DNA from: Candidatus Shapirobacteria bacterium
Lineage (GTDB): Bacteria > Patescibacteriota > Microgenomatia > UBA12405
Direction of reading: 5' to 3'
Length of the DNA: 64,000 nucleotides
NCBI GenBank assembly: GCA_041665485.1
Contig: JBAYIT010000001.1
Coordinates: 345,399-409,398 of the forward strand
Shown here: in pieces, positions 6,706 to 31,468 of the stretch
Position numbering within the stretch: the stretch's first letter is position 1
How the letters are laid out: the number at the start of each line of letters is the position of its first letter
Position numbers and translations under genes: made by a program
The notes under the pieces: generated by a model
What the model was told of the DNA's origin: nothing
Seen by the model: only the letters and a program-made list of their open reading frames with translations
Database searches by the model: none

Positions 6706-8043
6706 ATGGGGAAAGATGATGGCGCTGATAATCCAAAACTGATAGTGGATTTTGGATTGGAGAGGAGGCAATTGACAGATGGGCCGTTGAAGAGATTGAA
6801 TAGAGTGTTAAAAATGCCGTTCAATGGGGCGGTTATAGATCTGTTTGGGGATAATGTAGCCTTGGGTGGAGGCATGGCGACGATGATTTTGGCTGACAGA
6901 CTTGATGGTGAAAGAGTTGGTTTAGGGTGGGTGGGAGAGGATATGTCGCCAATAGCGGGAGCTGTTGGTGATTGTGATTGGTTGGTAAAAAGAGATGATT
7001 GGGACGTGGAGAGAATTGTCGCCGATTTGAACGAGAGTAATAATGGTCGATTTGTGGCGATGGCAGTGGGAGTTGGGGGTGAATACTCGAGGGTGGATAT
7101 TGAGGCTAATGGAGTAATTGTGGCGTCGGTAAGAAATATTGCTTTGGTGGCGGAATATGAAAGAAAGTTAAGAGAATCTTTAGGGGAAGAGGTGGAAGAA
7201 GTGCCTGATTGGGTTTTGGATCTGGCGGGAGCTCCTTTTAAAAATTGGGCGACGATTGAGAAGAGCGGGGAAGGGTGGGAGGTGTTGGGATTCAAAAGAG
7301 ATGGTGGTTTAAATCTGGAAAGAAACGAGTTTTCGACAACTAATGTTGTGAATTTTGAAAAATTATTGCGTGCTGGAAAGCCGGAGGCTTATTTGGTGGC
7401 GGGTGATTTTTTGGCGATGATGGGGAGATTGTTCACATTGAAGTGTTATGGGGCAGGTTTTGGAGATCGGGCTGAAGACATGCAGAAGATAATGGCTGAA
7501 TTTGGACAATTTTTCCAACTGGCGGAAGGATTTAAAAAAAAGCAATACAACTCATCTAGATCAAGATTGGCGGAAAGGATGGCATTGGGTTTGGCTTTTG
7601 ATGTCGATGCTGGCAGGCAAATGCTGATTAAAACTGGCTTAATGGCTGTATTTTCAGAAAAATTGGCGGGAAAAATTAGTGAACTTAGTAACCTCGAGAA
7701 TCAAGCAAAGTTTTCTAATGCATTCGATCTAGTAAATTATTTTGACAATGGATTGAAGATAAGAGATATAGGAAGATTGTTGGTAGTGTTGGGAATAGGT
7801 TGTGGTTTAAACCGAGAAGAATATCTTGAAGTAATGGAGGAAATGAGACAATATTGGAACCCGAGGCCGATTGATAAAGTGGCAAAATGGGGTGGCCGAG
7901 GTGGGTTTGACGTGAGCTTGAGAGAGAGAGGTTTTAGTGAAGTGTTTGATGATGAACAGGTAAGAAGTTGGCAAAGATTGGAAACCAGAAAACCCGAAGA
8001 GACGGAGAAGTTGGTTGGATGGTTGGTTGATGTAGTAAAATGA
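6706..8043 (+). CDS. hypothetical protein
   Basis: 445-aa ORF. Its stop overlaps the start of the next gene (ATGA at 8040-8043). Confidence 0.5.
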   Translation: MGKDDGADNPKLIVDFGLERRQLTDGPLKRLNRVLKMPFNGAVIDLFGDNVALGGGMATMILADRLDGERVGLGWVGEDMSPIAGAVGDCDWLVKRDDWDVERIVADLNESNNGRFVAMAVGVGGEYSRVDIEANGVIVASVRNIALVAEYERKLRESLGEEVEEVPDWVLDLAGAPFKNWATIEKSGEGWEVLGFKRDGGLNLERNEFSTTNVVNFEKLLRAGKPEAYLVAGDFLAMMGRLFTLKCYGAGFGDRAEDMQKIMAEFGQFFQLAEGFKKKQYNSSRSRLAERMALGLAFDVDAGRQMLIKTGLMAVFSEKLAGKISELSNLENQAKFSNAFDLVNYFDNGLKIRDIGRLLVVLGIGCGLNREEYLEVMEEMRQYWNPRPIDKVAKWGGRGGFDVSLRERGFSEVFDDEQVRSWQRLETRKPEETEKLVGWLVDVVK

Positions 8044-9233
8044 ATGATCTTATGAGTACTTTTGGACCAATATTAACTAAAGAAAGTTATCGGGTGGTGG
8101 CCGAAGTGGTGGAAAAGGTGATTGACGGGAGTAAATTAGAGGTACTTGTGGGATTACCGTATTCGGGGCGGTCCTTGATTTTGCGGCAAATGATGTACAA
8201 CCCGGAATTTTATAGTGAAGAATTTAAAAAGAAGGTAGAGAAAATAGTTGGAGTAGTGTTTGATATTCCCTCGGAGGCTGGTTTGGATGAGGTTTGGCAA
8301 AATAGTCCCTGGGGGAAAAAGATGGGAGGGAATTTTGAGGAGGCGGTTGAAAAAATAGTGAGTAGTGGTAAGCGATTAGTTTTAGCAATTAATTCAATTG
8401 ACACCTTGGGAGATAGTAAGGAAACTAGAAAAAATTGGAAGAAACTAATGGCAATTTATTATCGTCATCAGGCAGGTATTTCTTGGATAATTGGCCAAGG
8501 TTGGGAGGAGGTTGACGATGTGGCTGGTTGGCTTAGAGAAATGGATGGGTATTATCTAACCAATAAAAATTGGTTGCCAATGAGAACTTTAGAGGATATA
8601 AGCTTGTTTTTAAAAAATAGTAATAGTCAAAAACCAGAGACAGGGAAAATTTATGGTTTGAGTGGTGGATATTATTGTTTGGCAGAAAGGCTTAGAGAAA
8701 AACCGGAATTAGTTGATGCGCCGGTGGCGGTTAACGACGGAGTTATAGATCATTATTTGGGAATTTTATGGGAAAGTTGTGGCGAGAAAAGTCAACAGCA
8801 ATTATTAGATTTAATGCGGGGAAAGAGTAGTAATTTTAATGATTATTTGGCTAAAACTGGAGTGGTAAAAATAGAAGAGGGAAAGTGGAAATTATTTTCA
8901 CCGTTATTTTACGAGTGGCTAAAAAAGATGGTGGGAAGTAAGAGGCCAGAGATTGAGGAAAAGCTGGAAAAATTGTGGTTGGGAAGTAGTGATTTGAGCG
9001 AGGAGTTGAGTTATCAGGAGTATGAGGTATTGAAATTGCTGTGGCAAAAACAGGGTGAGGTGGTGGTGCGAAATGAGGTGGCCGAAGTGTTGTGGCCAAA
9101 TGATACGGAGGATAAATATTCCGATTGGGCGATTGACCAGGTAATGGCAAAAATTAGAAAAAAGCTTGGAGATGTAGGGGAAAATAGATTGATTAGGACA
9201 ATCAAGGGCAAGGGGATGATGCTAGAAAAATAG
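8040..9233 (+). CDS. P-loop NTPase-like domain fused to C-terminal OmpR/PhoB-type winged-helix DNA-binding domain (putative transcriptional regulator)
   Basis: C-terminus LSYQEYEVLKLLWQKQGEVVVRNEVAEVLWPND..DQVMAKIRKKLGD..LIRTIKGKGMML matches the trans_reg_C consensus (L.E..LL..L....G.V.SR..L...VW......D....I..LRKKL.....I.TVRG.GY). N-terminus has Walker-A-like GLPYSGRS and Walker-B-like LVLAINSID. Confidence 0.6.
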   Translation: MNDLMSTFGPILTKESYRVVAEVVEKVIDGSKLEVLVGLPYSGRSLILRQMMYNPEFYSEEFKKKVEKIVGVVFDIPSEAGLDEVWQNSPWGKKMGGNFEEAVEKIVSSGKRLVLAINSIDTLGDSKETRKNWKKLMAIYYRHQAGISWIIGQGWEEVDDVAGWLREMDGYYLTNKNWLPMRTLEDISLFLKNSNSQKPETGKIYGLSGGYYCLAERLREKPELVDAPVAVNDGVIDHYLGILWESCGEKSQQQLLDLMRGKSSNFNDYLAKTGVVKIEEGKWKLFSPLFYEWLKKMVGSKRPEIEEKLEKLWLGSSDLSEELSYQEYEVLKLLWQKQGEVVVRNEVAEVLWPNDTEDKYSDWAIDQVMAKIRKKLGDVGENRLIRTIKGKGMMLEK

Positions 9234-24863: not shown

Positions 24864-27239
24864 TTACTTGAGAATGACTTTGATGGGCCAAGATTTCATG
24901 CCAGTGTTCTTTTGTTTGTCCCAAACAGAGAGGGATGTCCAGTAGTCGCCGGCTTTAGTTGGCCAGCCACGAAGAGTACAAGTGAATAACTTTCGAGAGT
25001 CGTTTTTGGCGGTGTATTGACGGCAGGAGCTGTAGAGGCCACGAGGTAAATTGGTGAATTTAAAATAGAGGTAATGTTTTTTATCGGGGTCAGAGCCGGT
25101 GATAGTGGCGGAATAATATTTGTAGCGCTTAAGGACTGGAAAGGAGGTGTCGATGATAGTGATGTGAGAGGGAGGGGGAGCCGGAGGCCCGGGAGGTGAA
25201 GAACCGCCACCACCACCACCAGAATTACCACCGCCACCTCCGCCACCACTTGAAGAGCCACCCCCACCTCCACCGATAGCCGGGGCAGTTGTGGGAGTTG
25301 GTGTATTAGTCGGAATTGGAGTTAAAGTCGGGGTTGGGGTTAGGGTAGGAGTTGGAGTATTGGTTGGCGTTGAAGTTGGGGTGGAGGTGGGCGTTGAAGT
25401 ATTAGTAGGAATAGGTGTATTTGTTGGAGTTGGGCTGGGGGTGGGGGTAGAAGTAGGGGTAATTACTAAATTTGGTATGGCAAAGTTTCGGGTAGTAGTT
25501 CTGGTGTAGGTATATGGCAGTGGGCCACCATCTTTACTAAAAGAAATAAATCCTGATGGGAGACCTAGAGGGTATGTATAACGGTAGTAGTTATAACTAA
25601 CACGGTCATAAGTGACACGAGAATTTTCTGGTTTAGGTTGGTATGAGGAAAGTGAAAAATATTTTGCCGGCGGCTGATAATTCCAATAAGCCATTTCAGC
25701 TTGATCTGAAGAGATGCCGGAGGTGATTGGATAAAGCTCAAAAACTGTTTTATTAAATTGATTATTTGAAAAATCGTGAGTAATGTAGAAAACACGGTTG
25801 CCAAAAGGATTAAGGCCGTTTTGATTGTTGACAGGCCGATAACGCTTATCGAAAGCGGTTGAAACAAATAATACTCTGGCTTTTTTGTTGGCACCAAAAT
25901 AATCAACAGTTAGATCGATATTGGTAACGGTGGGGTTGATCAATGTTTTGGCGGTGGTGTTAAAAATTCGGCTGTCGTAACAAAAAGAGCTTAAATATGA
26001 GTGAGATGTAGAAGCCGTTGAAGTTGAACCGAAAAGATCAAAACACTCTTCTGCGGTAGGATCAATAATAGTAGACGTAAAAGAGGGATAACTTTGATTG
26101 TTACTAGTAAAGCTTATTGGTTGCGAGCTATTGGATTGGCCAAGAGCAAAGAGTTGTTTTAGATTTTTAACTTGATCGCCAGTGATATTAAAAATGATTG
26201 AATTAGTTGAATCTTTGACTTCGGCGGTGATGGTGATGTTGTAATATTCCAATGTTTGAGGGTCGCTGTCGCCAATTTGTCTGGCGGCTGGAACCGGATA
26301 GTAACAGTGAGGAGCTCTCTTTTCACAATCCTCTTTGGCAATTTGTTGCCAGCGGACGTCAGTAGTTTGGCCATTGTTATCAACGTAATCCCAGTAATAC
26401 CCATCAGTACACCAATATTTAATGCCGATGTGTCCTGGCCAAGCCATCTGGACTAAAAACTGTTCACCTTGATATTCGATTTTATCAACTACTGTTTTTA
26501 GTGGGCAGGATAGACCGATTGGGAGTGGAATTGGAGTGGGAGTGGGGGTGGAAGTAGGGGTTGGAGTTGGGGTGGGGCTGTTGGTAGGAGTAGGAATAGG
26601 TGTTGTTGGCGAGCTTGAATTGTATGCGATGGAGCTTGCTTCAAAGTCAACAGTTCCATGACCGATGTTTTGACTGTTGGCCGAGTCGGAGAAATCACCA
26701 TCTAGGTGGAATAGAGATACTGTGAATTCGTCGGGGACAAACGGGGTCGATGGTGGGGTAAAGTTAGCGGCATATCTGACGTTTTTTGAGATTCGAATTT
26801 CATCAATACTCCCATAGAATGGAGCATCGTTTGGTTGATACATTCCAATATAAAAGGGGCCGTTTCCGTAAATGATTGGCACAGAAGTACTAGTTGACCC
26901 TTGGAGTTGTCCGTTAACATACAAGCGACCGTTCTGTCTGTTTTGGTTGTTTGGGTCGTTTACCAAGGCGATGTGTGACCATCGGCCGCATAAATTTGAG
27001 TTGGAGGTAATAGCCTGGACTCCACTACCATACATGAAACGACCAGTGTTATCGTTGTAGATTCCTTTGTATGTGAAAAAGGAGAAAGAGTCATTATAGG
27101 GAAGGTCGAAGTTTTCTCGTTTTCGGAAAGCATAAAAAGTACCATCGGGAGAGTTGGTGCAGTCTTTTTTGATCCAGCCTTCGGCGGTAAATTCTTGGAG
27201 ATTGTAGATGCTACCAGGGAAACTTACGCCTTGCCCCAC
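24864..27239 (-). CDS. large Pro/Thr-rich surface protein with LamG/ConA-like lectin domain (C-terminal 791 aa; same frame as ORF 27378-27866)
   Basis: N-terminal part resembles a LamG-like jelly-roll (GRWSHIALV...LYVNGQ...FYGSIDEIRIS). PT-rich linkers, a poly-Gly/Ser tract and a Cys-containing C-terminal domain follow. Apparent start is GTG, and the frame stays open upstream to the TAA at 27378-27380. Confidence 0.6.
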   Translation of the reverse strand: MGQGVSFPGSIYNLQEFTAEGWIKKDCTNSPDGTFYAFRKRENFDLPYNDSFSFFTYKGIYNDNTGRFMYGSGVQAITSNSNLCGRWSHIALVNDPNNQNRQNGRLYVNGQLQGSTSTSVPIIYGNGPFYIGMYQPNDAPFYGSIDEIRISKNVRYAANFTPPSTPFVPDEFTVSLFHLDGDFSDSANSQNIGHGTVDFEASSIAYNSSSPTTPIPTPTNSPTPTPTPTSTPTPTPIPLPIGLSCPLKTVVDKIEYQGEQFLVQMAWPGHIGIKYWCTDGYYWDYVDNNGQTTDVRWQQIAKEDCEKRAPHCYYPVPAARQIGDSDPQTLEYYNITITAEVKDSTNSIIFNITGDQVKNLKQLFALGQSNSSQPISFTSNNQSYPSFTSTIIDPTAEECFDLFGSTSTASTSHSYLSSFCYDSRIFNTTAKTLINPTVTNIDLTVDYFGANKKARVLFVSTAFDKRYRPVNNQNGLNPFGNRVFYITHDFSNNQFNKTVFELYPITSGISSDQAEMAYWNYQPPAKYFSLSSYQPKPENSRVTYDRVSYNYYRYTYPLGLPSGFISFSKDGGPLPYTYTRTTTRNFAIPNLVITPTSTPTPSPTPTNTPIPTNTSTPTSTPTSTPTNTPTPTLTPTPTLTPIPTNTPTPTTAPAIGGGGGGSSSGGGGGGGNSGGGGGGSSPPGPPAPPPSHITIIDTSFPVLKRYKYYSATITGSDPDKKHYLYFKFTNLPRGLYSSCRQYTAKNDSRKLFTCTLRGWPTKAGDYWTSLSVWDKQKNTGMKSWPIKVILK

Positions 27240-27866: not shown

Positions 27867-28123
27867 ATGTCAACAGGTACCGCCGATTATACATACTGGT
27901 TACTTATATGTCAAGTTATAGGACGTTATTTTCCACCGGAACCACGGCTTTGAGTGCGAAAGGCAGTGTTGAATTTAGGGACGTTGAATTGTGGTTTCCT
28001 GAATTGGTTGAAGCCGGGATTTTTGGGAGGAATCCGAACCTCGAAAGGTTTGGTGGCTTGAGGACTTTGGAGAGTGTTGTCTGATGGTTTAGTCATATTG
28101 GTTTATTTTAGCAGAAATTTCTA

Positions 28124-28217: not shown

Positions 28218-29087
28218 TTAAAGAACAGTATAAACGACATCATTAATAGTATTGGCGCCGGAGAGGAGCATGGCAAGCCGGTCGAAACCGAGGCCGACGC
28301 CGGCGATAGGAGTGGGTAGGCTTGCTGAATTGATGGCGAAATTGGGATTAGTGCGGTGGATGGGGAGATTGTTTTGAAGGCGAAAATTGGTTTCGGTGGC
28401 AAAATTTTCTTCGATTAGTTTGGGGTCGGTGTTTTCAGTACAGCCGTTGGCAATTTCCATGCCATTAATATAGAGTTCAAAACGTTCTGCCAGATTATTT
28501 TTTGGTTTGGCTAATGGTGACATGAAGGCAGGGTAGTCAGTAATAAAAATAGGAGTGAGGGGGAGTTTTGGCTCGATATGGTTTAGAAAAATTTGATTGA
28601 GATCCGGCTCGTTTTTGGGGAGAGAAAAGCCCTTGTTGGCAAAAAGTTTAGCGAGGGGAATTCGGGGCCAAGGAGCATTGGGTATCTTTAGTGTTCGAAT
28701 ACTCTTTATTTTATTAAAGCAGTGGGTAATATAGTTTTGGGTAGAAGTCATTAAGTCAGTGTAATTGTGGCCGATTTCGTACCACTCGAGCATGGTAAAT
28801 TCGGGTTGATGAAGAGGGCCACTGGCTTCAAGGTCGCGAAAAGACTTAGAAATGGCAAAACAATTTTGTTTTTGAGTGGCTAAAATCTTCTTTAGGGTAG
28901 ATTCAGGAGAAGTAGCTAAATATAACTTTTGCTTATTGTGTTGCCAAATGGTGGAAAATGAGTAAATATCTGGTTCGATTGGGAGAGAGGGTAGAAGGAT
29001 GGGCGGGTCGACTTCAATAAAACCGTTAGCCCAAAAATATTCCCTGGTAAATTTTAATAATTGCTGACGAATCTCTTGAGGGGACAT
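28218..29087 (-). CDS. epmA: EF-P lysyl transferase-like protein (truncated class II LysRS paralog, EpmA/PoxA family)
   Basis: Motifs YLATSPE, SKSFRDLEASGPLHQPEFTMLEWY align with EpmA (SPE..., FRNE...HNPEFTMLEWY). Size about 290 aa, lacks an anticodon-binding domain. Confidence 0.6.
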   Translation of the reverse strand: MSPQEIRQQLLKFTREYFWANGFIEVDPPILLPSLPIEPDIYSFSTIWQHNKQKLYLATSPESTLKKILATQKQNCFAISKSFRDLEASGPLHQPEFTMLEWYEIGHNYTDLMTSTQNYITHCFNKIKSIRTLKIPNAPWPRIPLAKLFANKGFSLPKNEPDLNQIFLNHIEPKLPLTPIFITDYPAFMSPLAKPKNNLAERFELYINGMEIANGCTENTDPKLIEENFATETNFRLQNNLPIHRTNPNFAINSASLPTPIAGVGLGFDRLAMLLSGANTINDVVYTVL

Positions 29088-29118
29088 TGAAAAAAATTTT
29101 AAATTTTAAATTTTAAAA

Positions 29119-30069
29119 TCAAGAAAAGTATTTTATAACATCTTGGCAGGAGGGTAGGTGGAGGTCTTGAGAATAACCACAATTATATTTTGGATCACAA
29201 CAACCGGAACAGGAAATTTTTAATTTCTCCGTCTGAGACGGACTTCGCTTCGCTTCGCAATTTTCAATTTTCAATGAATGTTCAAATTTATTAATTTCAA
29301 AATTATTAAATAGTTTGCAGTTTTGACAAGTGGAAAGTAAATTTGAAAAATCAGTAACTATTTTTTTAATTGGATCGGAGAGTTTGCCGATAGAAATAGG
29401 GGATTCGCAACAACTATAAATTAGGCCGTTTGACTGAAGAGAGATTTGGGAGCAGCCTAAATTTTTTCCTGGAAAAGTGGGGTAATTTTGTTTAATGTTG
29501 ATAACTTGGGCGGGAGTGAGAGAGCCTAAACGGTCGGTGAGATAGGTAACGGTAACTGGTAATCGGTAATCGGTAATCAGTGATCTGGGAAAAGAGTCCT
29601 TATACTTATATGAATCTTTAGTAATTAGAAAAAAGATACCAACGGGGAAGCCGAGGGAAAGGGCGTGGTTGATAAAGTCGATAGATTTGGCAAAATTGCC
29701 CCCCCCGCGATTTTTGTCGTGAATTTCCTTGGGGCCATCAAGAGAGACCAGAAGCTGGCAGTTTTGAGGATCATTGATTTTATCGAGTTGGTCGATAGTG
29801 CCATTAGTAATAATGGTGATAAATATGCCAAGTTTGAGGAGATTATTGACGAGGCAGGGAAAGCTTTTAAGAGTGAAGACTTCACCACCGCAAAAAGTAA
29901 TAGATCCTAGATTTTGGTTTTTAGATGTTAGATAGGAACGATATCTTTTAACAAAACCTAGAATTTGCTTGTTGGTGAGGATATTTTTAGTCTTGCGGGT
30001 GTAGCAGTATTTGCAGGCAAGGTTACAGGATTCGAGAGGAGAGATATAAAGACTAGTTAGCATGGCCAA
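29119..30069 (-). CDS. radical SAM enzyme with SPASM/twitch-like C-terminal Cys cluster
   Basis: N-terminal CNLACKYCY (Cx3Cx2C) after 14 residues. CGGE SAM-binding glycine motif. C-terminal CSQISLQSNGLIYSCC (Cx8Gx4C) and CQNC...C...SCSGCC...C clusters. Two repeat families are inserted in-frame (29230-29275 and 29545-29585). Probable ATG at 30063, 8 nt after the rpmG stop. Confidence 0.7.
   Translation of the reverse strand: MAMLTSLYISPLESCNLACKYCYTRKTKNILTNKQILGFVKRYRSYLTSKNQNLGSITFCGGEVFTLKSFPCLVNNLLKLGIFITIITNGTIDQLDKINDPQNCQLLVSLDGPKEIHDKNRGGGNFAKSIDFINHALSLGFPVGIFFLITKDSYKYKDSFPRSLITDYRLPVTVTYLTDRLGSLTPAQVINIKQNYPTFPGKNLGCSQISLQSNGLIYSCCESPISIGKLSDPIKKIVTDFSNLLSTCQNCKLFNNFEINKFEHSLKIENCEAKRSPSQTEKLKISCSGCCDPKYNCGYSQDLHLPSCQDVIKYFS
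29545..29585. repeat. ggtaat[ct] heptamer tandem array (in-frame inside radical SAM gene)
   Basis: ggtaacggtaactggtaatcggtaatcggtaatcagtgatc encodes ITDYRLPVTVTYLTD on the minus strand. Family members at 17625-17658, 22246-22265, 43258-43296, 43575-43600, 56471-56510, 61218-61258 and 61624-61662. Confidence 0.8.
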
Positions 30070-30070
30070 C

Positions 30071-30259
30071 TTATTTCAATTTAGTCGATTCTTTGTGCTC
30101 GGTACGCTTTTTACACCAATTGCAGTATTTCATGAATTTGAGCTTGTCGGGAGTGTTGGTCTTGTTCTTTTGGGTGAGATAATTTTGAGCGCCACAAACA
30201 GAACATAAGAGAGCTAGTAAAATTCGTGGTGTTTTTTTTGATTTTTCGCCTTTGGCCAT
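30071..30259 (-). CDS. rpmG: 50S ribosomal protein L33 (zinc-ribbon form)
   Basis: MAKGEKSKKTPRILLALLCSVCGAQNYLTQKNKTN..KLKFMKYCNWCKKRTEHKE is an L33-like sequence with a CxxC...CxxC zinc ribbon. Confidence 0.8.
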   Translation of the reverse strand: MAKGEKSKKTPRILLALLCSVCGAQNYLTQKNKTNTPDKLKFMKYCNWCKKRTEHKESTKLK

Positions 30260-30296
30260 GAGGGTATTGTACTACAAAATTTTAAATTTGAAATTT

Positions 30297-31154
30297 TTAA
30301 TTTTTAAATTCTAAGGTTTCGATGATTTTGTTGTCGAAAAGGGTTTTGGCCAGGGTGTCGGAGAAGAATTGGGCGCCGAGTTCGGAGGGGTGGAGGTTGT
30401 CGGCCTTGGAGATAAGTTCGGGAAGGCCTTCGTCGTTTTTGAGGCTATTGGTGAAGGCATTGGCTAGGGGGAATTTTTGTGATTGAGCAAAATTAATGAT
30501 GTTTTGAAGATAGGCCCTGATGGTTTTGGTCTTTTCTATTTTTTCGAGATTGGTGAGATGAATATCTTTAATGCCAGAAGCAAAATTAAGAGAATTAGGG
30601 GCAATGGTGGCAGTGAGAACGATTTTGGTGGCAGGTAATTCTTTTTGGATGGTAGAGGTAATATTGCTTAGAGCTTGCCATTGACGATCAAAACCGGATT
30701 GAGTATTACCAAAATTGTTGTAGGCAAATGATTCAACGACGATGATATCTGGGTTGAGAGAGAGGAGGGAAGGATAATCCTGATCTTTATATTGATAATT
30801 ATTTTTGAGCCGGTGGAGAGCGTATTCGATATTAGAGGCGCCGACGCCATAGTTAATAATCTTGAATTTTTTATTGGGGAAATATTGTTCGAGGGCGGTT
30901 TCTAAGCTGGAGATGTCTGGCCCAAGGGTATCGATCATGGAGTCGCCCAAAACGGCAATGGTGATAATCTGCTGGTTTTCTTGAATACCGCCAATGCCAT
31001 GAATTACGGAGTTAGGTCGTCGATCATCGATCGTCGTTTGGATGCCCAAGACCTGAGGTGTTTCAATGTTTTGAACTAGAGCGATTGGGGTGGGCATGGG
31101 TAGAGAATAGTGAGGTTGATAAGCCTCGATAAGTTGATAGAAGAGAGGAATCAT
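30297..31154 (-). CDS. SGNH/GDSL-family hydrolase
   Basis: GDS block IAVLGDSMID and C-terminal DNLHPSELG (DxxH) are typical of SGNH hydrolases. Confidence 0.65.
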   Translation of the reverse strand: MIPLFYQLIEAYQPHYSLPMPTPIALVQNIETPQVLGIQTTIDDRRPNSVIHGIGGIQENQQIITIAVLGDSMIDTLGPDISSLETALEQYFPNKKFKIINYGVGASNIEYALHRLKNNYQYKDQDYPSLLSLNPDIIVVESFAYNNFGNTQSGFDRQWQALSNITSTIQKELPATKIVLTATIAPNSLNFASGIKDIHLTNLEKIEKTKTIRAYLQNIINFAQSQKFPLANAFTNSLKNDEGLPELISKADNLHPSELGAQFFSDTLAKTLFDNKIIETLEFKN

Positions 31155-31468
31155 GAAAGTGAGTAGTTAACCAATGTTTGTTTATAGCGCTTGATTTGTT
31201 TCTCGATTTGTTGGCTTAGATCGATGAGAGCGCTTTCGAGATTAATGTGGGAAGTAGAGGCAAAAAGGCTTTCTTTGCCGGGAAGATTCATGTCAAAGTT
31301 GACGGTAAAATGGCCGATTTTGTCTTTAGTGATTTTCATGGAGGCGATTTTTAAATCAGGGGCAAAATCAGTCAAAAGTTTTTCTAATTTGAGATTAATT
31401 TTGTTGTCGATTAGCTTTTTAACTTTGGAGGAAAGAGAAATGTTATCGCCGAGGATTTGAATGTTCAT
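31151..31468 (-). CDS. hpf: ribosome hibernation promoting factor / RaiA family
   Basis: 105 aa. MNIQILGDNISLSSKVKKLIDNKINLKLEKL...FTVNFDMNL matches the HPF/YfiA short form. Confidence 0.7.
   Translation of the reverse strand: MNIQILGDNISLSSKVKKLIDNKINLKLEKLLTDFAPDLKIASMKITKDKIGHFTVNFDMNLPGKESLFASTSHINLESALIDLSQQIEKQIKRYKQTLVNYSLS

Follow-up and report, generated by a model that had tools for sequence, protein, structure and literature searches.

To rescue ribosomes stalled at polyproline stretches, EF-P/eIF5A has to be modified at a single loop residue, in a way that differs between lineages. Only a handful of such chemistries have been described, and they account for a minority of the bacterial phyla. 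The closest described system is the EpmA/EpmB/EpmC (GenX-YjeK-YfcM) pathway of Gammaproteobacteria, by which Lys34 of EF-P is beta-lysylated; the KamA/EpmB enzymes (TIGR00238, TIGR03821) carry a CX3CX2C motif around residue 120-130 and a C-terminal PLP-lysine domain. Other EF-P/eIF5A modifications comprise rhamnosylation of Arg32 by EarP, 5-aminopentanolylation in Bacillus, and hypusine. Like the candidate system described here, they place a lineage-specific chemistry on the loop-tip residue by means of dedicated enzymes often encoded near efp, but we know of none among them that couples a radical-SAM enzyme of the twitch/SPASM type to an EpmA-like ligase. SPASM domains (PF13186/TIGR04085) hold two auxiliary clusters on seven cysteines, CX9-15GX4C...CX2CX5CX3C...C, and the twitch domain of enzymes such as SkfB, BtrN, MoaA and EpeE is a C-terminal beta-hairpin with about four cysteines and a single auxiliary cluster.

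The window, i.e. the whole stretch of 64,000 nucleotides that was analyzed, contains a string of genes on the minus strand, headed by a ribosome hibernation factor of the HPF/RaiA family (31151-31468; PF02482, E 2e-9; its TIGR00741 score in NCBIfam of 30.4 bits lies below the cut-off of 40.9). It is followed by an SGNH/GDSL-family hydrolase (30297-31154; PF13472 and PF00657), rpmG for the 62-residue ribosomal protein L33 (30071-30259; PF00471, E 1e-18, and TIGR01023), a radical-SAM gene (rSAM, 29119-30069 from a TTG or 29119-30063 from an ATG; PF04055, E 1.3e-15) and a gene for an EpmA-like class-II aminoacyl-tRNA synthetase core of 289 residues (28218-29087; PF00152, E 3e-44, and TIGR00462). 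The L33 is of the zinc-ribbon type, with CxxC...CxxC at C19, C22, C46 and C49. These Pfam and NCBIfam identities confirm the order SGNH hydrolase, rpmG, rSAM, epmA-like on the minus strand that a previous sequence-only reading of this DNA had given. The rSAM start also falls, as had been stated there, on the eighth nucleotide past the rpmG stop: the TAA of rpmG ends at 30071 and is followed by the TTG at 30069 and the ATG at 30063, which puts seven nucleotides between stop and ATG. The protein would have 316 residues from the TTG and 314 from the ATG; the public record takes the latter and names the product 'radical SAM protein'. No Shine-Dalgarno sequence is visible before the rSAM start, an AT-rich spacer of 31 nucleotides lies between the rSAM stop and the ATG of the EpmA-like gene, and a promoter and terminator scan yielded nothing decisive.

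The ligase resembles EpmA in being a LysRS-type class-II catalytic core devoid of an anticodon-binding domain, and its best NCBIfam match is the genX/EpmA model TIGR00462 with 216.8 bits, compared to 156 bits for the LysRS models. This match covers residues 6-286, corresponding to model positions 3-303 of 304, and that to PF00152 covers residues 5-285. Unlike EpmA itself, the protein scores below the family cut-offs (216.8 versus 286.9 for TIGR00462; 185.5 versus 264 for NF006828), its rSAM-linked relatives score 243-282 on TIGR00462, and only the ligase of locus L084, which has no rSAM, passes with 316 bits. For a check of individual residues, the ligase was aligned to Salmonella PoxA (3G1Z) and to LysRS; S76, P77, E78, R100, E102, H108, E116, Y118, E244, N247, E251, G296, G300 and R303 (E. 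coli EpmA numbering) are invariant in 74 relatives. As every residue checked in the class-II motifs and among the acidic positions that bind lysine is kept, the enzyme is probably catalytically intact and hence likely active, and we regard it as a putative EF-P lysine ligase and a divergent relative of EpmA. A split LysRS was considered and rejected: the protein lacks the anticodon-binding domain and fits EpmA models better than LysRS ones, and its gene repeatedly has efp nearby. In public records the ligase is called 'amino acid--tRNA ligase-related protein', and the two products could be annotated as a pair.

A further departure from EpmA concerns the residue that gates beta-lysine, Ala298, in whose place the window ligase has Gly (AGVGLGFDRL versus CSGVALGVDRL). 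Gly298 occurs in 70 of 75 and in 49 of 50 relatives; altogether, 119 of 125 complete EpmA-like sequences have it, 124 of the 125 being encoded next to an rSAM, and five rSAM-linked ligases (L064, L066, L068, L070 and L157) keep Ala. In E. coli EpmA, the substitution A298G turns the enzyme from (R)-beta-lysine to alpha-lysine (bioRxiv 10.64898/2026.07.07.736966). The ligase is a natural EpmA variant with this A298G 'alpha-lysine' switch, which has been studied by mutagenesis only so far. A strict rule that Gly298 means alpha-lysine and hence no EpmB is weakened by the five Ala-type ligases and by a KamA-family gene beside a Gly-type ligase in L081/L091.

The partner enzyme belongs to the radical SAM superfamily (PF04055), with C15/C19/C22 and C60-G-G-E invariant. 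Its signature consists of CX3CX2C (C15/C19/C22), GGE, C206-x13-C220-C221-E222 and C290-x6-C297. In the window protein, the cysteines are arranged as C206-x8-G-x4-C220-C221...C248xxC251...C287xxC290C291x5C297...C308; this pattern (C-x8-G-x4-C, CxxC, CxxCCx5C...C) resembles the SPASM seven-cysteine motif without fitting it, and aligns weakly with the SPASM cysteines of anSME. The extra cysteines 248, 251, 287, 291 and 308 flank an in-frame insertion, and only C206, C220, C221, C290 and C297 of the C-terminal domain are kept across 239 family members: C-x(11-16)-CCE is present in 238 and CX6C in 237 of them, and at least six cysteines after the CCE motif in 108 of 238 (45%). Five conserved cysteines would serve one auxiliary cluster and leave one residue to spare, and the C-terminal core is predicted to be twitch-like, with one cluster, rather than a full SPASM domain. 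Thus, of what had been claimed for this enzyme, the Cx3Cx2C motif near the N-terminus stands, at residues 15, 19 and 22, and the 'SPASM-like' cluster stands in part: the predicted fold supports it, but Pfam returns no SPASM match at E<=0.01.

The enzyme falls into none of the curated families, QueE, PflA and NrdG included, which had been named as identities that would speak against a new pathway: its top NCBIfam match reaches 48.6 bits, and every family listed demands 131 bits or more. Searches of Pfam, NCBIfam and PDB sequences match the generic core only, and the C-terminal 80 residues searched on their own gave chance matches only. Only 29 clusters (50% identity) match the enzyme at E<=1e-30 among 1.84 billion proteins; the family comprises well over a thousand non-redundant sequences from Shapirobacteria, Woesebacteria, Gottesmanbacteria and their relatives. 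The AlphaFold model (pLDDT 80.8) has SkfB, anSME, EpeE, SuiB, BlsE and MoaA as top Foldseek matches, with viperin and DesII also among the neighbors; SkfB ranks first whether the long form (TM 0.59) or the short one (TM 0.69) is searched. No KamA-family model is among the best 25 of 61 NCBIfam family matches, and no KAM structure is found in the top 50 fold matches; furthermore, the CX3CX2C motif at residue 15 is unlike KamA/EpmB in position. Sequence and modeled fold hence characterize the protein as a twitch/SPASM-type enzyme and not as a KamA/EpmB aminomutase, in line with the sequence-only reading. Since some of the fold neighbors, namely BlsE, viperin and MoaA, work on small molecules, the rSAM may also act on a free substrate.

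The best structural neighbors SkfB, anSME and SuiB (TM 0.59-0.69) act on polypeptides and share with the rSAM the SxDG...HD..R.G.GxF core and the CX8-15GX4C hairpin cysteines. They differ from it in that the rSAM lacks a Pfam SPASM or NCBIfam subfamily match, that about half of its family is too cysteine-poor for a second auxiliary cluster, and that its partner is an aaRS-like ligase instead of a precursor peptide or a sulfatase. EpeE (YydG) from B. subtilis is similar in size (319 versus 316 residues), in having CX3CX2C near residue 15, in the twitch-type C-terminal domain with one auxiliary cluster (predicted for the rSAM), and in a G-x4-C-C doublet. In a global alignment, the CC doublet of the rSAM falls on C222/C223 of a YydG sequence checked for length and C14/18/21, D210 and C223 only. 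In EpeE, C223 is the H-atom donor (PMC13012085). Yet the rSAM is only about 17-20% identical to EpeE, has no RiPP precursor gene, and does not conserve the proton-relay Asp210. As the hhalign match is limited to residues 9-92 of the N-terminal core (82% probability), and EpeE, matched with E 1e-8, comes at rank 5-9 with the long-form model and at rank 26 with the short-form one, with SkfB, anSME, BlsE and viperin equal or better, we do not adopt a kinship to EpeE and keep it only as a lead for the CC doublet.

The pair is further connected to EF-P by a comparison of the window's Shapirobacteria-like clade (clade 1, GTDB species loci) with a second Microgenomates clade (clade 2, metagenome loci). 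In clade 2, efp lies near the pair in ten loci, in the order rSAM-EpmA-efp in L075, L086, L112, L121, L145, L167 and L168, no more than 2.3 kb away in L113 and L138, and divergently oriented in L157. These EF-Ps are only 42-56% identical to that of L075, which indicates several divergent lineages, and all ten have a PGKG (lysine) loop, as do 114 or more of 120 related EF-Ps from CPR bacteria. The efp adjacency is confined to clade 2, and in the clade of the window the constant neighbor is rpmG. Neither efp (tblastn with the E. coli and B. subtilis proteins) nor epmB/kamA (tblastn with EpmB and KamA) was found in the window or in 10 kb beyond either end. Of the substrates proposed in the sequence-only reading, EF-P has become the favored one.

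We propose, with a probability of roughly 45%, that the rSAM and the EpmA-like ligase are a two-gene cassette of CPR Microgenomates which modifies the loop-tip lysine (PGKG) of EF-P. The EpmA-like enzyme would form the adenylate of lysine, or of a compound closely derived from it, and ligate the activated residue onto the EF-P lysine; the rSAM would then tailor EF-P or the attached lysyl group by H-abstraction through the 5'-deoxyadenosyl radical. In the rSAM, C206, C220, C290 and C297 would hold one auxiliary [4Fe-4S] cluster, and C221 of the CCE motif is, by analogy to Cys223 in EpeE, a possible H-atom donor or redox partner. Candidate outcomes are epimerization, dehydrogenation or another C-H functionalization. 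A tentative and more specific version, to which we give somewhat less credence, is that the Gly-gated ligase adds alpha-lysine or a non-canonical derivative and the rSAM rewrites the bound residue, e.g. by L-to-D epimerization, in-situ isomerization or dehydrogenation. The genes rpmG, HPF and SGNH would be operon or synteny neighbors, co-expressed with translation genes, and not substrates.

The proposed cassette parallels EpmA/EpmB/EpmC in its ligase, in the radical-SAM gene alongside, in the loop-tip lysine of EF-P (PGKG) and in the occasional presence of efp in the cluster. It differs in its hosts, which are CPR Microgenomates, and in a radical-SAM partner that belongs to a compact, uncurated twitch/SPASM-type family instead of being a PLP-dependent KamA; nor did an EpmC come to notice in the window or the fetched loci. 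The rSAM-EpmA-(efp) arrangement points to an undescribed way of modifying EF-P chemically; no description of such a pathway was found in the searchable literature on EF-P together with radical SAM, SPASM or CPR, in line with the sequence-only reading. If the more specific version is true, EF-P would carry a modification of a new type, and the rSAM would be the first radical-SAM enzyme to act directly on one of its side chains. The cassette provides a testable candidate EF-P pathway for a large uncultured radiation, and a compact uncharacterized radical-SAM family gains a candidate role.

The alternative that fares best, although we consider it unlikely, also ends at the EF-P lysine but reverses the sequence of events: the rSAM would act before ligation and make the acyl donor, by a non-KamA route to beta-lysine or as another lysine derivative, which the Gly298 pocket would accommodate. 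Since Gly298 prevails and A298G alters the choice of lysine, the ligase probably uses another donor than canonical EpmA does. At L084, a locus syntenic with L075, efp is preceded by an EpmA of the canonical Ala298 type and the rSAM is missing, so that rSAM and ligase type tend to change together; this arrangement fits a donor-supplying role of the rSAM as well as a tailoring one. The small-molecule enzymes among the fold neighbors, DesII included, and the gene order, which echoes an EpmB-then-EpmA logic, are likewise in favor of donor synthesis. Against it, the rSAM has neither a PLP-binding domain nor similarity to KamA, and a PLP-independent aminomutase would, to our knowledge, be unprecedented. 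Moreover, the best fold matches work on peptides or proteins, and the five Ala-type ligases are linked to an rSAM all the same. A KamA-family gene, absent from the window and from 170 loci otherwise, stands beside the pair in L081/L091 (same organism) although the ligase there has Gly, which leaves another role for the rSAM. This relative also makes it unsafe to assume that the system operates without EpmB. Among 722 genomes, yjeA was found without yjeK in only two (Bailly and de Crecy-Lagard 2010).

It is improbable that the rSAM has an unrelated housekeeping role, acting on a cofactor or metabolite, on RNA or on another protein, and just shares a transcript with the EpmA-like gene in small, compact genomes. 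Genes are densely packed in CPR genomes and many of them overlap, and nine clade-2 loci whose downstream flank spans 1 kb or more show no adjacent EpmA; in seven of the nine this flank is 1.3-6 kb long, and five of these seven are from one lineage with the arrangement UppP-rSAM-MFS. In clade 1, locus L078 has no adjacent EpmA. A sister family (about 290 residues, 28-31% identical and also with a CC doublet) has no EpmA-like neighbor either, and we place it outside the system. Nevertheless, rSAM and EpmA-like gene are a conserved unit: they stand side by side in 75 of the 76 species-level loci that could be evaluated in clade 1 and in 63 of 72 evaluable loci of clade 2, i.e. over two deep clades in which rSAM identity drops to about 37-45% and all other flanks change. 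In L081-L083, the pair is adjacent amid wholly different flanks, with genes overlapping by 1-8 nucleotides. The linkage has also outlasted inversion to divergent orientation (L048, L064, L070) and insertion of one to two genes (L002, L051, L058, L060), a classical signature of a functional link.

The rpmG part of the rpmG-rSAM-epmA adjacency, which the sequence-only reading had put forward as a whole, fails outside clade 1. There, 70 of 78 evaluable loci have rpmG ahead of the rSAM, the stop of the one frequently abutting the start of the other, and HPF lies upstream in most loci, with the SGNH hydrolase between HPF and rpmG in part of the clade only. In clade 2, rpmG is beside the pair in none of 80 loci; in the first scan, eight evaluable loci also lack it there, whereas EpmA stays. 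The rpmG link is clade-specific synteny, shared with HPF and amounting to about one evolutionary event, and L33 is therefore a weak substrate candidate. Furthermore, the statement that no small ORF is evident nearby was inaccurate: 121 nucleotides downstream of the EpmA-like gene starts a conserved 56-residue ORF (27926-28096, minus strand), basic and ending in FRTQSRGSGGK, which is Cys-free and no typical precursor peptide. In 14 related loci, the same C-terminal motif recurs past the EpmA gene and on its strand; the ORF has no NCBIfam match at a cut-off of 1e-20, is called a hypothetical protein in the public record, and its place in the cassette is doubtful. That the cassette targets one of these two proteins, the translationally coupled L33 or the 56-residue protein, with the acceptor of the ligase changed, would agree with the tight rpmG spacing, the recurrent ORF and the ligase score under the EpmA cut-off. 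However, the ORF is limited to a sub-clade, often has a gene in between and has no cysteine, and the neighbor that recurs in independent contexts is efp and not rpmG. We judge such a target quite improbable and set aside the more exotic idea of L33 as substrate. Least of all do we expect a RiPP maturase acting on an unrecognized precursor peptide with the aaRS-like protein as accessory: despite the fold and a weak profile likeness to SkfB, SuiB, GggB or DynA (about 45-49 bits), the pair has no conserved small companion ORF with a Cys-, Trp- or otherwise core-like sequence, a RiPP recognition element domain is missing, no transporter or protease gene lies nearby, and across clades with differing flanks the only recurrent partners are EpmA-like genes and efp.

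Finally, the spacer between rSAM and EpmA-like gene contains an AT-rich heptad repeat (AAATTTA/AAAATTT; 29094-29113, no strand assigned), which recurs before rpmG (30277-30303) and within the insertion of the rSAM (29214-29226). Allowing at most one mismatch, AAATTTAAAATTT has 10 matches in the window where 1.7 are expected, and all of them lie inside 29094-30303.

Five minus-strand genes lie head-to-tail in the window at 28218-31468: an HPF/RaiA-type hibernation factor (31151-31468, PF02482), an SGNH/GDSL hydrolase (30297-31154, PF13472 and PF00657), rpmG for a zinc-ribbon-type L33 with four cysteines (30071-30259, PF00471), a radical-SAM protein (29119-30069, PF04055; here rSAM, as are its homologues) and a 289-aa protein with a class-II aaRS catalytic core (28218-29087), whose best family model is EpmA/GenX (here EpmA-like). 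The TAA stop of rpmG ends at 30071, and 7 nt later comes the rSAM ATG at 30063, from which the public record starts its 314-aa protein; between the stop of rSAM and the start of the EpmA-like gene lies an AT-rich spacer of 31 nt. Family models, sequence spacing and the public record thus bear out the order and identities of rpmG, rSAM and the EpmA-like gene proposed in the sequence-only reading. The record contains exactly these last two proteins, named 'radical SAM protein' and 'amino acid--tRNA ligase-related protein' and nothing more specific, and neither rSAM nor its pairing with an EpmA-like gene is described by any curated family, any solved structure or any paper in the library searched.

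This pairing is conserved. One genome per GTDB species was scanned with an alignment of rSAM homologues, which gave 80 loci, all Shapirobacteria-, Woesebacteria- or Microgenomates-like (the first clade), and their neighbours were scored by tblastn with the window proteins. An EpmA-like gene adjoins rSAM in 75 of the 80, and in four of the remaining five the sequence ends within 300 nt of rSAM; L078 is the sole first-clade locus with a flank (1.9 kb) yet without an EpmA-like gene. The pair is kept despite inversion to divergent orientation (L048, L064, L070) and despite the insertion of one or two glycosyltransferase genes between its members (L002, L051, L058, L060). Starting from locus L075, we reached a further clade of larger size (the second clade; Gottesmanbacteria among others, ~45% identical), where in three look-ups the genes for rSAM and a tRNA-synt_2 protein overlap by 1-8 nt and the flanks differ wholly (RuvABC/DsbA; MgtE/Nramp; GT2/NUDIX). 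A metagenome scan added 80 further second-clade loci, 63 of them with an EpmA-like gene adjoining rSAM; of the other 17, 8 are cut by contig ends, and nine have at least 1 kb of downstream flank and no adjoining EpmA-like gene. Five of these nine belong to one lineage with the order UppP-rSAM-MFS (L094, L099, L100, L109, L110), in which no EpmA-like gene occurs within the available downstream flank (6 kb in three, 5.6 kb and 1.3 kb). rpmG lies 5' of rSAM in 70 of 78 evaluable first-clade loci, mostly together with HPF, and beside rSAM in none of the 80 second-clade loci. Hence, of the rpmG-rSAM-epmA adjacency first suspected, the latter two genes form the conserved unit, whereas L33 is a clade-specific neighbour and the rpmG/HPF adjacency is synteny common to one clade.

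The window EpmA-like protein scores 216.8 bits against TIGR00462 over its full length versus ~156 bits against LysRS models; those paired with rSAM reach 217-282 bits, below the curated EpmA cut-off of 286.9. All class-II motif and acidic lysine-contact residues examined are invariant in an alignment of 74 relatives (S76, P77, E78, R100, E102, H108, E111, F112, E116, Y118, E237, E244, N247, E251, G296, G300 and R303 in E. coli EpmA numbering), and from the LysRS and GenX structures we take them to be substrate contacts. Position 298 is Gly, the same as in LysRS, in 70 of 75 and 49 of 50 sequences of two sets, and Ala in L064, L066, L068, L070 and L157, all linked to rSAM, as well as in L084. 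In EpmA, A298 is described as the backbone-selectivity gate, and A298G makes the enzyme prefer (S)-alpha-lysine where it had preferred (R)-beta-lysine (bioRxiv 10.64898/2026.07.07.736966). The alignments point to a ligase with an intact predicted active site and a LysRS-like Gly gate.

In Pfam, rSAM matched the core domain alone, and its best NCBIfam score, 48.6 bits, compares with cut-offs that run into the hundreds. The family is compact, with 29 clusters (50% identity) at E<=1e-30 among 1.84 billion representatives, and with 536 and 871 non-redundant members in two word-indexed searches. AlphaFold models of the window protein (pLDDT 80.8) and a short-form relative (pLDDT 84.5) match SkfB (TM 0.59 and 0.69), anSME, SuiB, BlsE, viperin, EpeE and MoaA, and the best 50 fold matches include no structure of a lysine aminomutase. 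Whether the enzyme is KAM or anSME-like, a question raised by the sequence-only reading, is settled by these models for the twitch/SPASM side and not for KamA. Among 239 members, CX3CX2C is present in 239, C-x(11-16)-C-C-E in 238, a later CX6C in 237 and an extra CxxC in 72. Since about half of the members have just two or three cysteines beyond the CCE motif, the conserved core would comprise four candidate ligands of one auxiliary cluster (C206, C220, C290, C297; window protein numbering) and an invariant spare Cys221. When rSAM and EpeE/YydG are aligned globally, the rSAM G-x4-C-C doublet falls on C222/C223 of EpeE/YydG; the YydG sequence used agrees with the published enzyme in length and in the places of C14/18/21, D210 and C223. 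In the epimerisation mechanism of EpeE, Cys223 acts as the H-atom donor (PMC13012085). Because profile comparison supports the N-terminal core alone, the likeness to EpeE is a lead rather than a classification. As a long form, the window protein has added cysteines, which lie around a variable, low-confidence insertion at residues 255-280. The corresponding DNA (~29205-29300 (-), residues ~255-285) combines repeats of AAAATTG and of CGAAG with a short GC hairpin (tccgtctcagacgga), and looks like an in-frame DNA insertion into the C-terminal domain; in homologues the same repeat encodes 'LKI(E/V)NCKL', either N-terminally or where rSAM has its insertion.

The neighbourhood of the pair also recurrently includes efp. 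This gene lies directly 3' of the pair in L075, L086, L112, L121, L145, L167 and L168, no more than 2.3 kb away in L113 and L138, and divergently in L157. The EF-Ps of the metagenome loci share 42-56% identity with that of L075, and therefore several lineages have efp near the pair. The loop (V/T)(N/S)PGKG(S/G/A)A is common to every adjoining EF-P that was checked and to at least 114 of the 120 related EF-Ps from CPR, and its lysine falls where E. coli EpmA modifies EF-P; in the window itself and in 10 kb past either end no efp was found. At L084, which is syntenic with L075 (NUDIX ... EpmA - efp - methyltransferase - PAP2 - Lon - PIG-L), EF-P shares 81% identity with its L075 counterpart, but EpmA just 38%. 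The L084 EpmA has Ala298 and scores 316 bits, above the family cut-off, and no rSAM gene is present at this locus. Thus, one locus can carry either rSAM with a Gly-type ligase or a canonical EpmA by itself, and the difference between the compared stretches (L084 3982-5570; L075 4255-6668) looks like a natural module swap.

EpmB was found neither in the window nor in the fetched loci, except for L081 and L091, which represent one organism (their KamA-family protein is identical). Here, a convergent gene for a divergent, 393-aa radical-SAM protein of the KamA family directly follows the EpmA-like gene (L081 7040-8221 (-), L091 3085-4266 (-)). Its product has CX3CX2C and a C-terminal GYGK and scores 182 bits against TIGR03822, 157 against TIGR00238 and 154 against EpmB, all below cut-off; the ligase has Gly at position 298. 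BipA/TypA comes next after the KamA-family gene. This one instance speaks against rSAM being simply a substitute for EpmB. As of 2010, yjeA without yjeK was reported in 2 of 722 genomes (PMC2821294).

Altogether, we infer that the loop lysine of EF-P is what the pair modifies. In the reading we tentatively prefer (probability roughly 45%), the EpmA-like ligase would join lysine or a close derivative to EF-P, and rSAM would then tailor EF-P or lysyl-EF-P by radical chemistry, with C221 as a possible H-donor. The reverse order, in which rSAM acts before ligation and makes the acyl donor, is a less probable alternative. Systems that modify EF-P through an EpmA-type ligase and a radical-SAM helper are already known in kind; new here are a helper of a different enzyme class and a ligase with a different specificity gate.

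It is rather unlikely that rSAM has an unrelated function, a reading in whose favour the nine second-clade loci without an adjoining EpmA-like gene count. Slightly less credit still is due to a different acceptor, for example L33 or the 56-aa protein encoded 3' of the EpmA-like gene. RiPP maturation by rSAM is very improbable.

The undecaprenyl-diphosphatase-like and major-facilitator-like neighbours in the UppP-rSAM-MFS lineage were named by eye, not by HMM. In L078, the ~1.9-kb stretch 3' of rSAM (6919-8848) holds no convincing ORF at the expected EpmA-like place, which may reflect a decayed gene or a non-coding element. Many L001-L080 records are titled 'uncultured Gammaproteobacteria bacterium', and one Methanoperedens; similarity to named Shapirobacteria makes them clearly Microgenomates, and the titles are unreliable as taxonomy. 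A sister radical-SAM family (P0376-P0409; L087-L090) of ~280-310 aa, 28-31% identical and uncurated, likewise carries a CC doublet, with CX2CX5C after it at the C-terminal end, and is not linked to EpmA-like genes.

A conserved basic, Cys-free ORF of 56-62 aa ending in FR(T/N)Q(N/S)RG(S/G)GGK sits 3' of the EpmA-like gene in the window (27926-28096 (-)) and in 14 related loci (e.g. L016 8819-9010, L014 6755-6985); the 56-aa copy is annotated 'hypothetical protein' in the public record and had no match at a 1e-20 cut-off in an NCBIfam search. Farther along, 24864-27239 (-) encodes a secreted-type protein of 791 aa, in which a Laminin_G_3/ConA-like domain at the N-terminus is accompanied by long linkers rich in Pro/Thr and by a run of Gly/Ser. 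The AT-rich heptad AAATTTA/AAAATTT has 10 matches in the window versus 1.7 expected; its sites (29094-29113, 29214-29226, 30277-30303) are limited to 5' of rpmG, 5' of the EpmA-like gene and the inside of the rSAM gene, and it may serve the rSAM operon as a common promoter or regulatory element. Strand asymmetry is extreme: GC skew is +0.385 across the whole 64 kb (G 18888 vs C 8385) irrespective of gene orientation, with coding-strand third-codon-position skews of +0.56 for plus-strand and -0.65 for minus-strand genes. The magnitude of GC skew is 0.10-0.40 in the Shapirobacteria-like loci L001-L074, except in L048 and L063 (near zero), and the second-clade loci checked (L075, L077, L079-L086) have little or none (-0.08 to +0.08).
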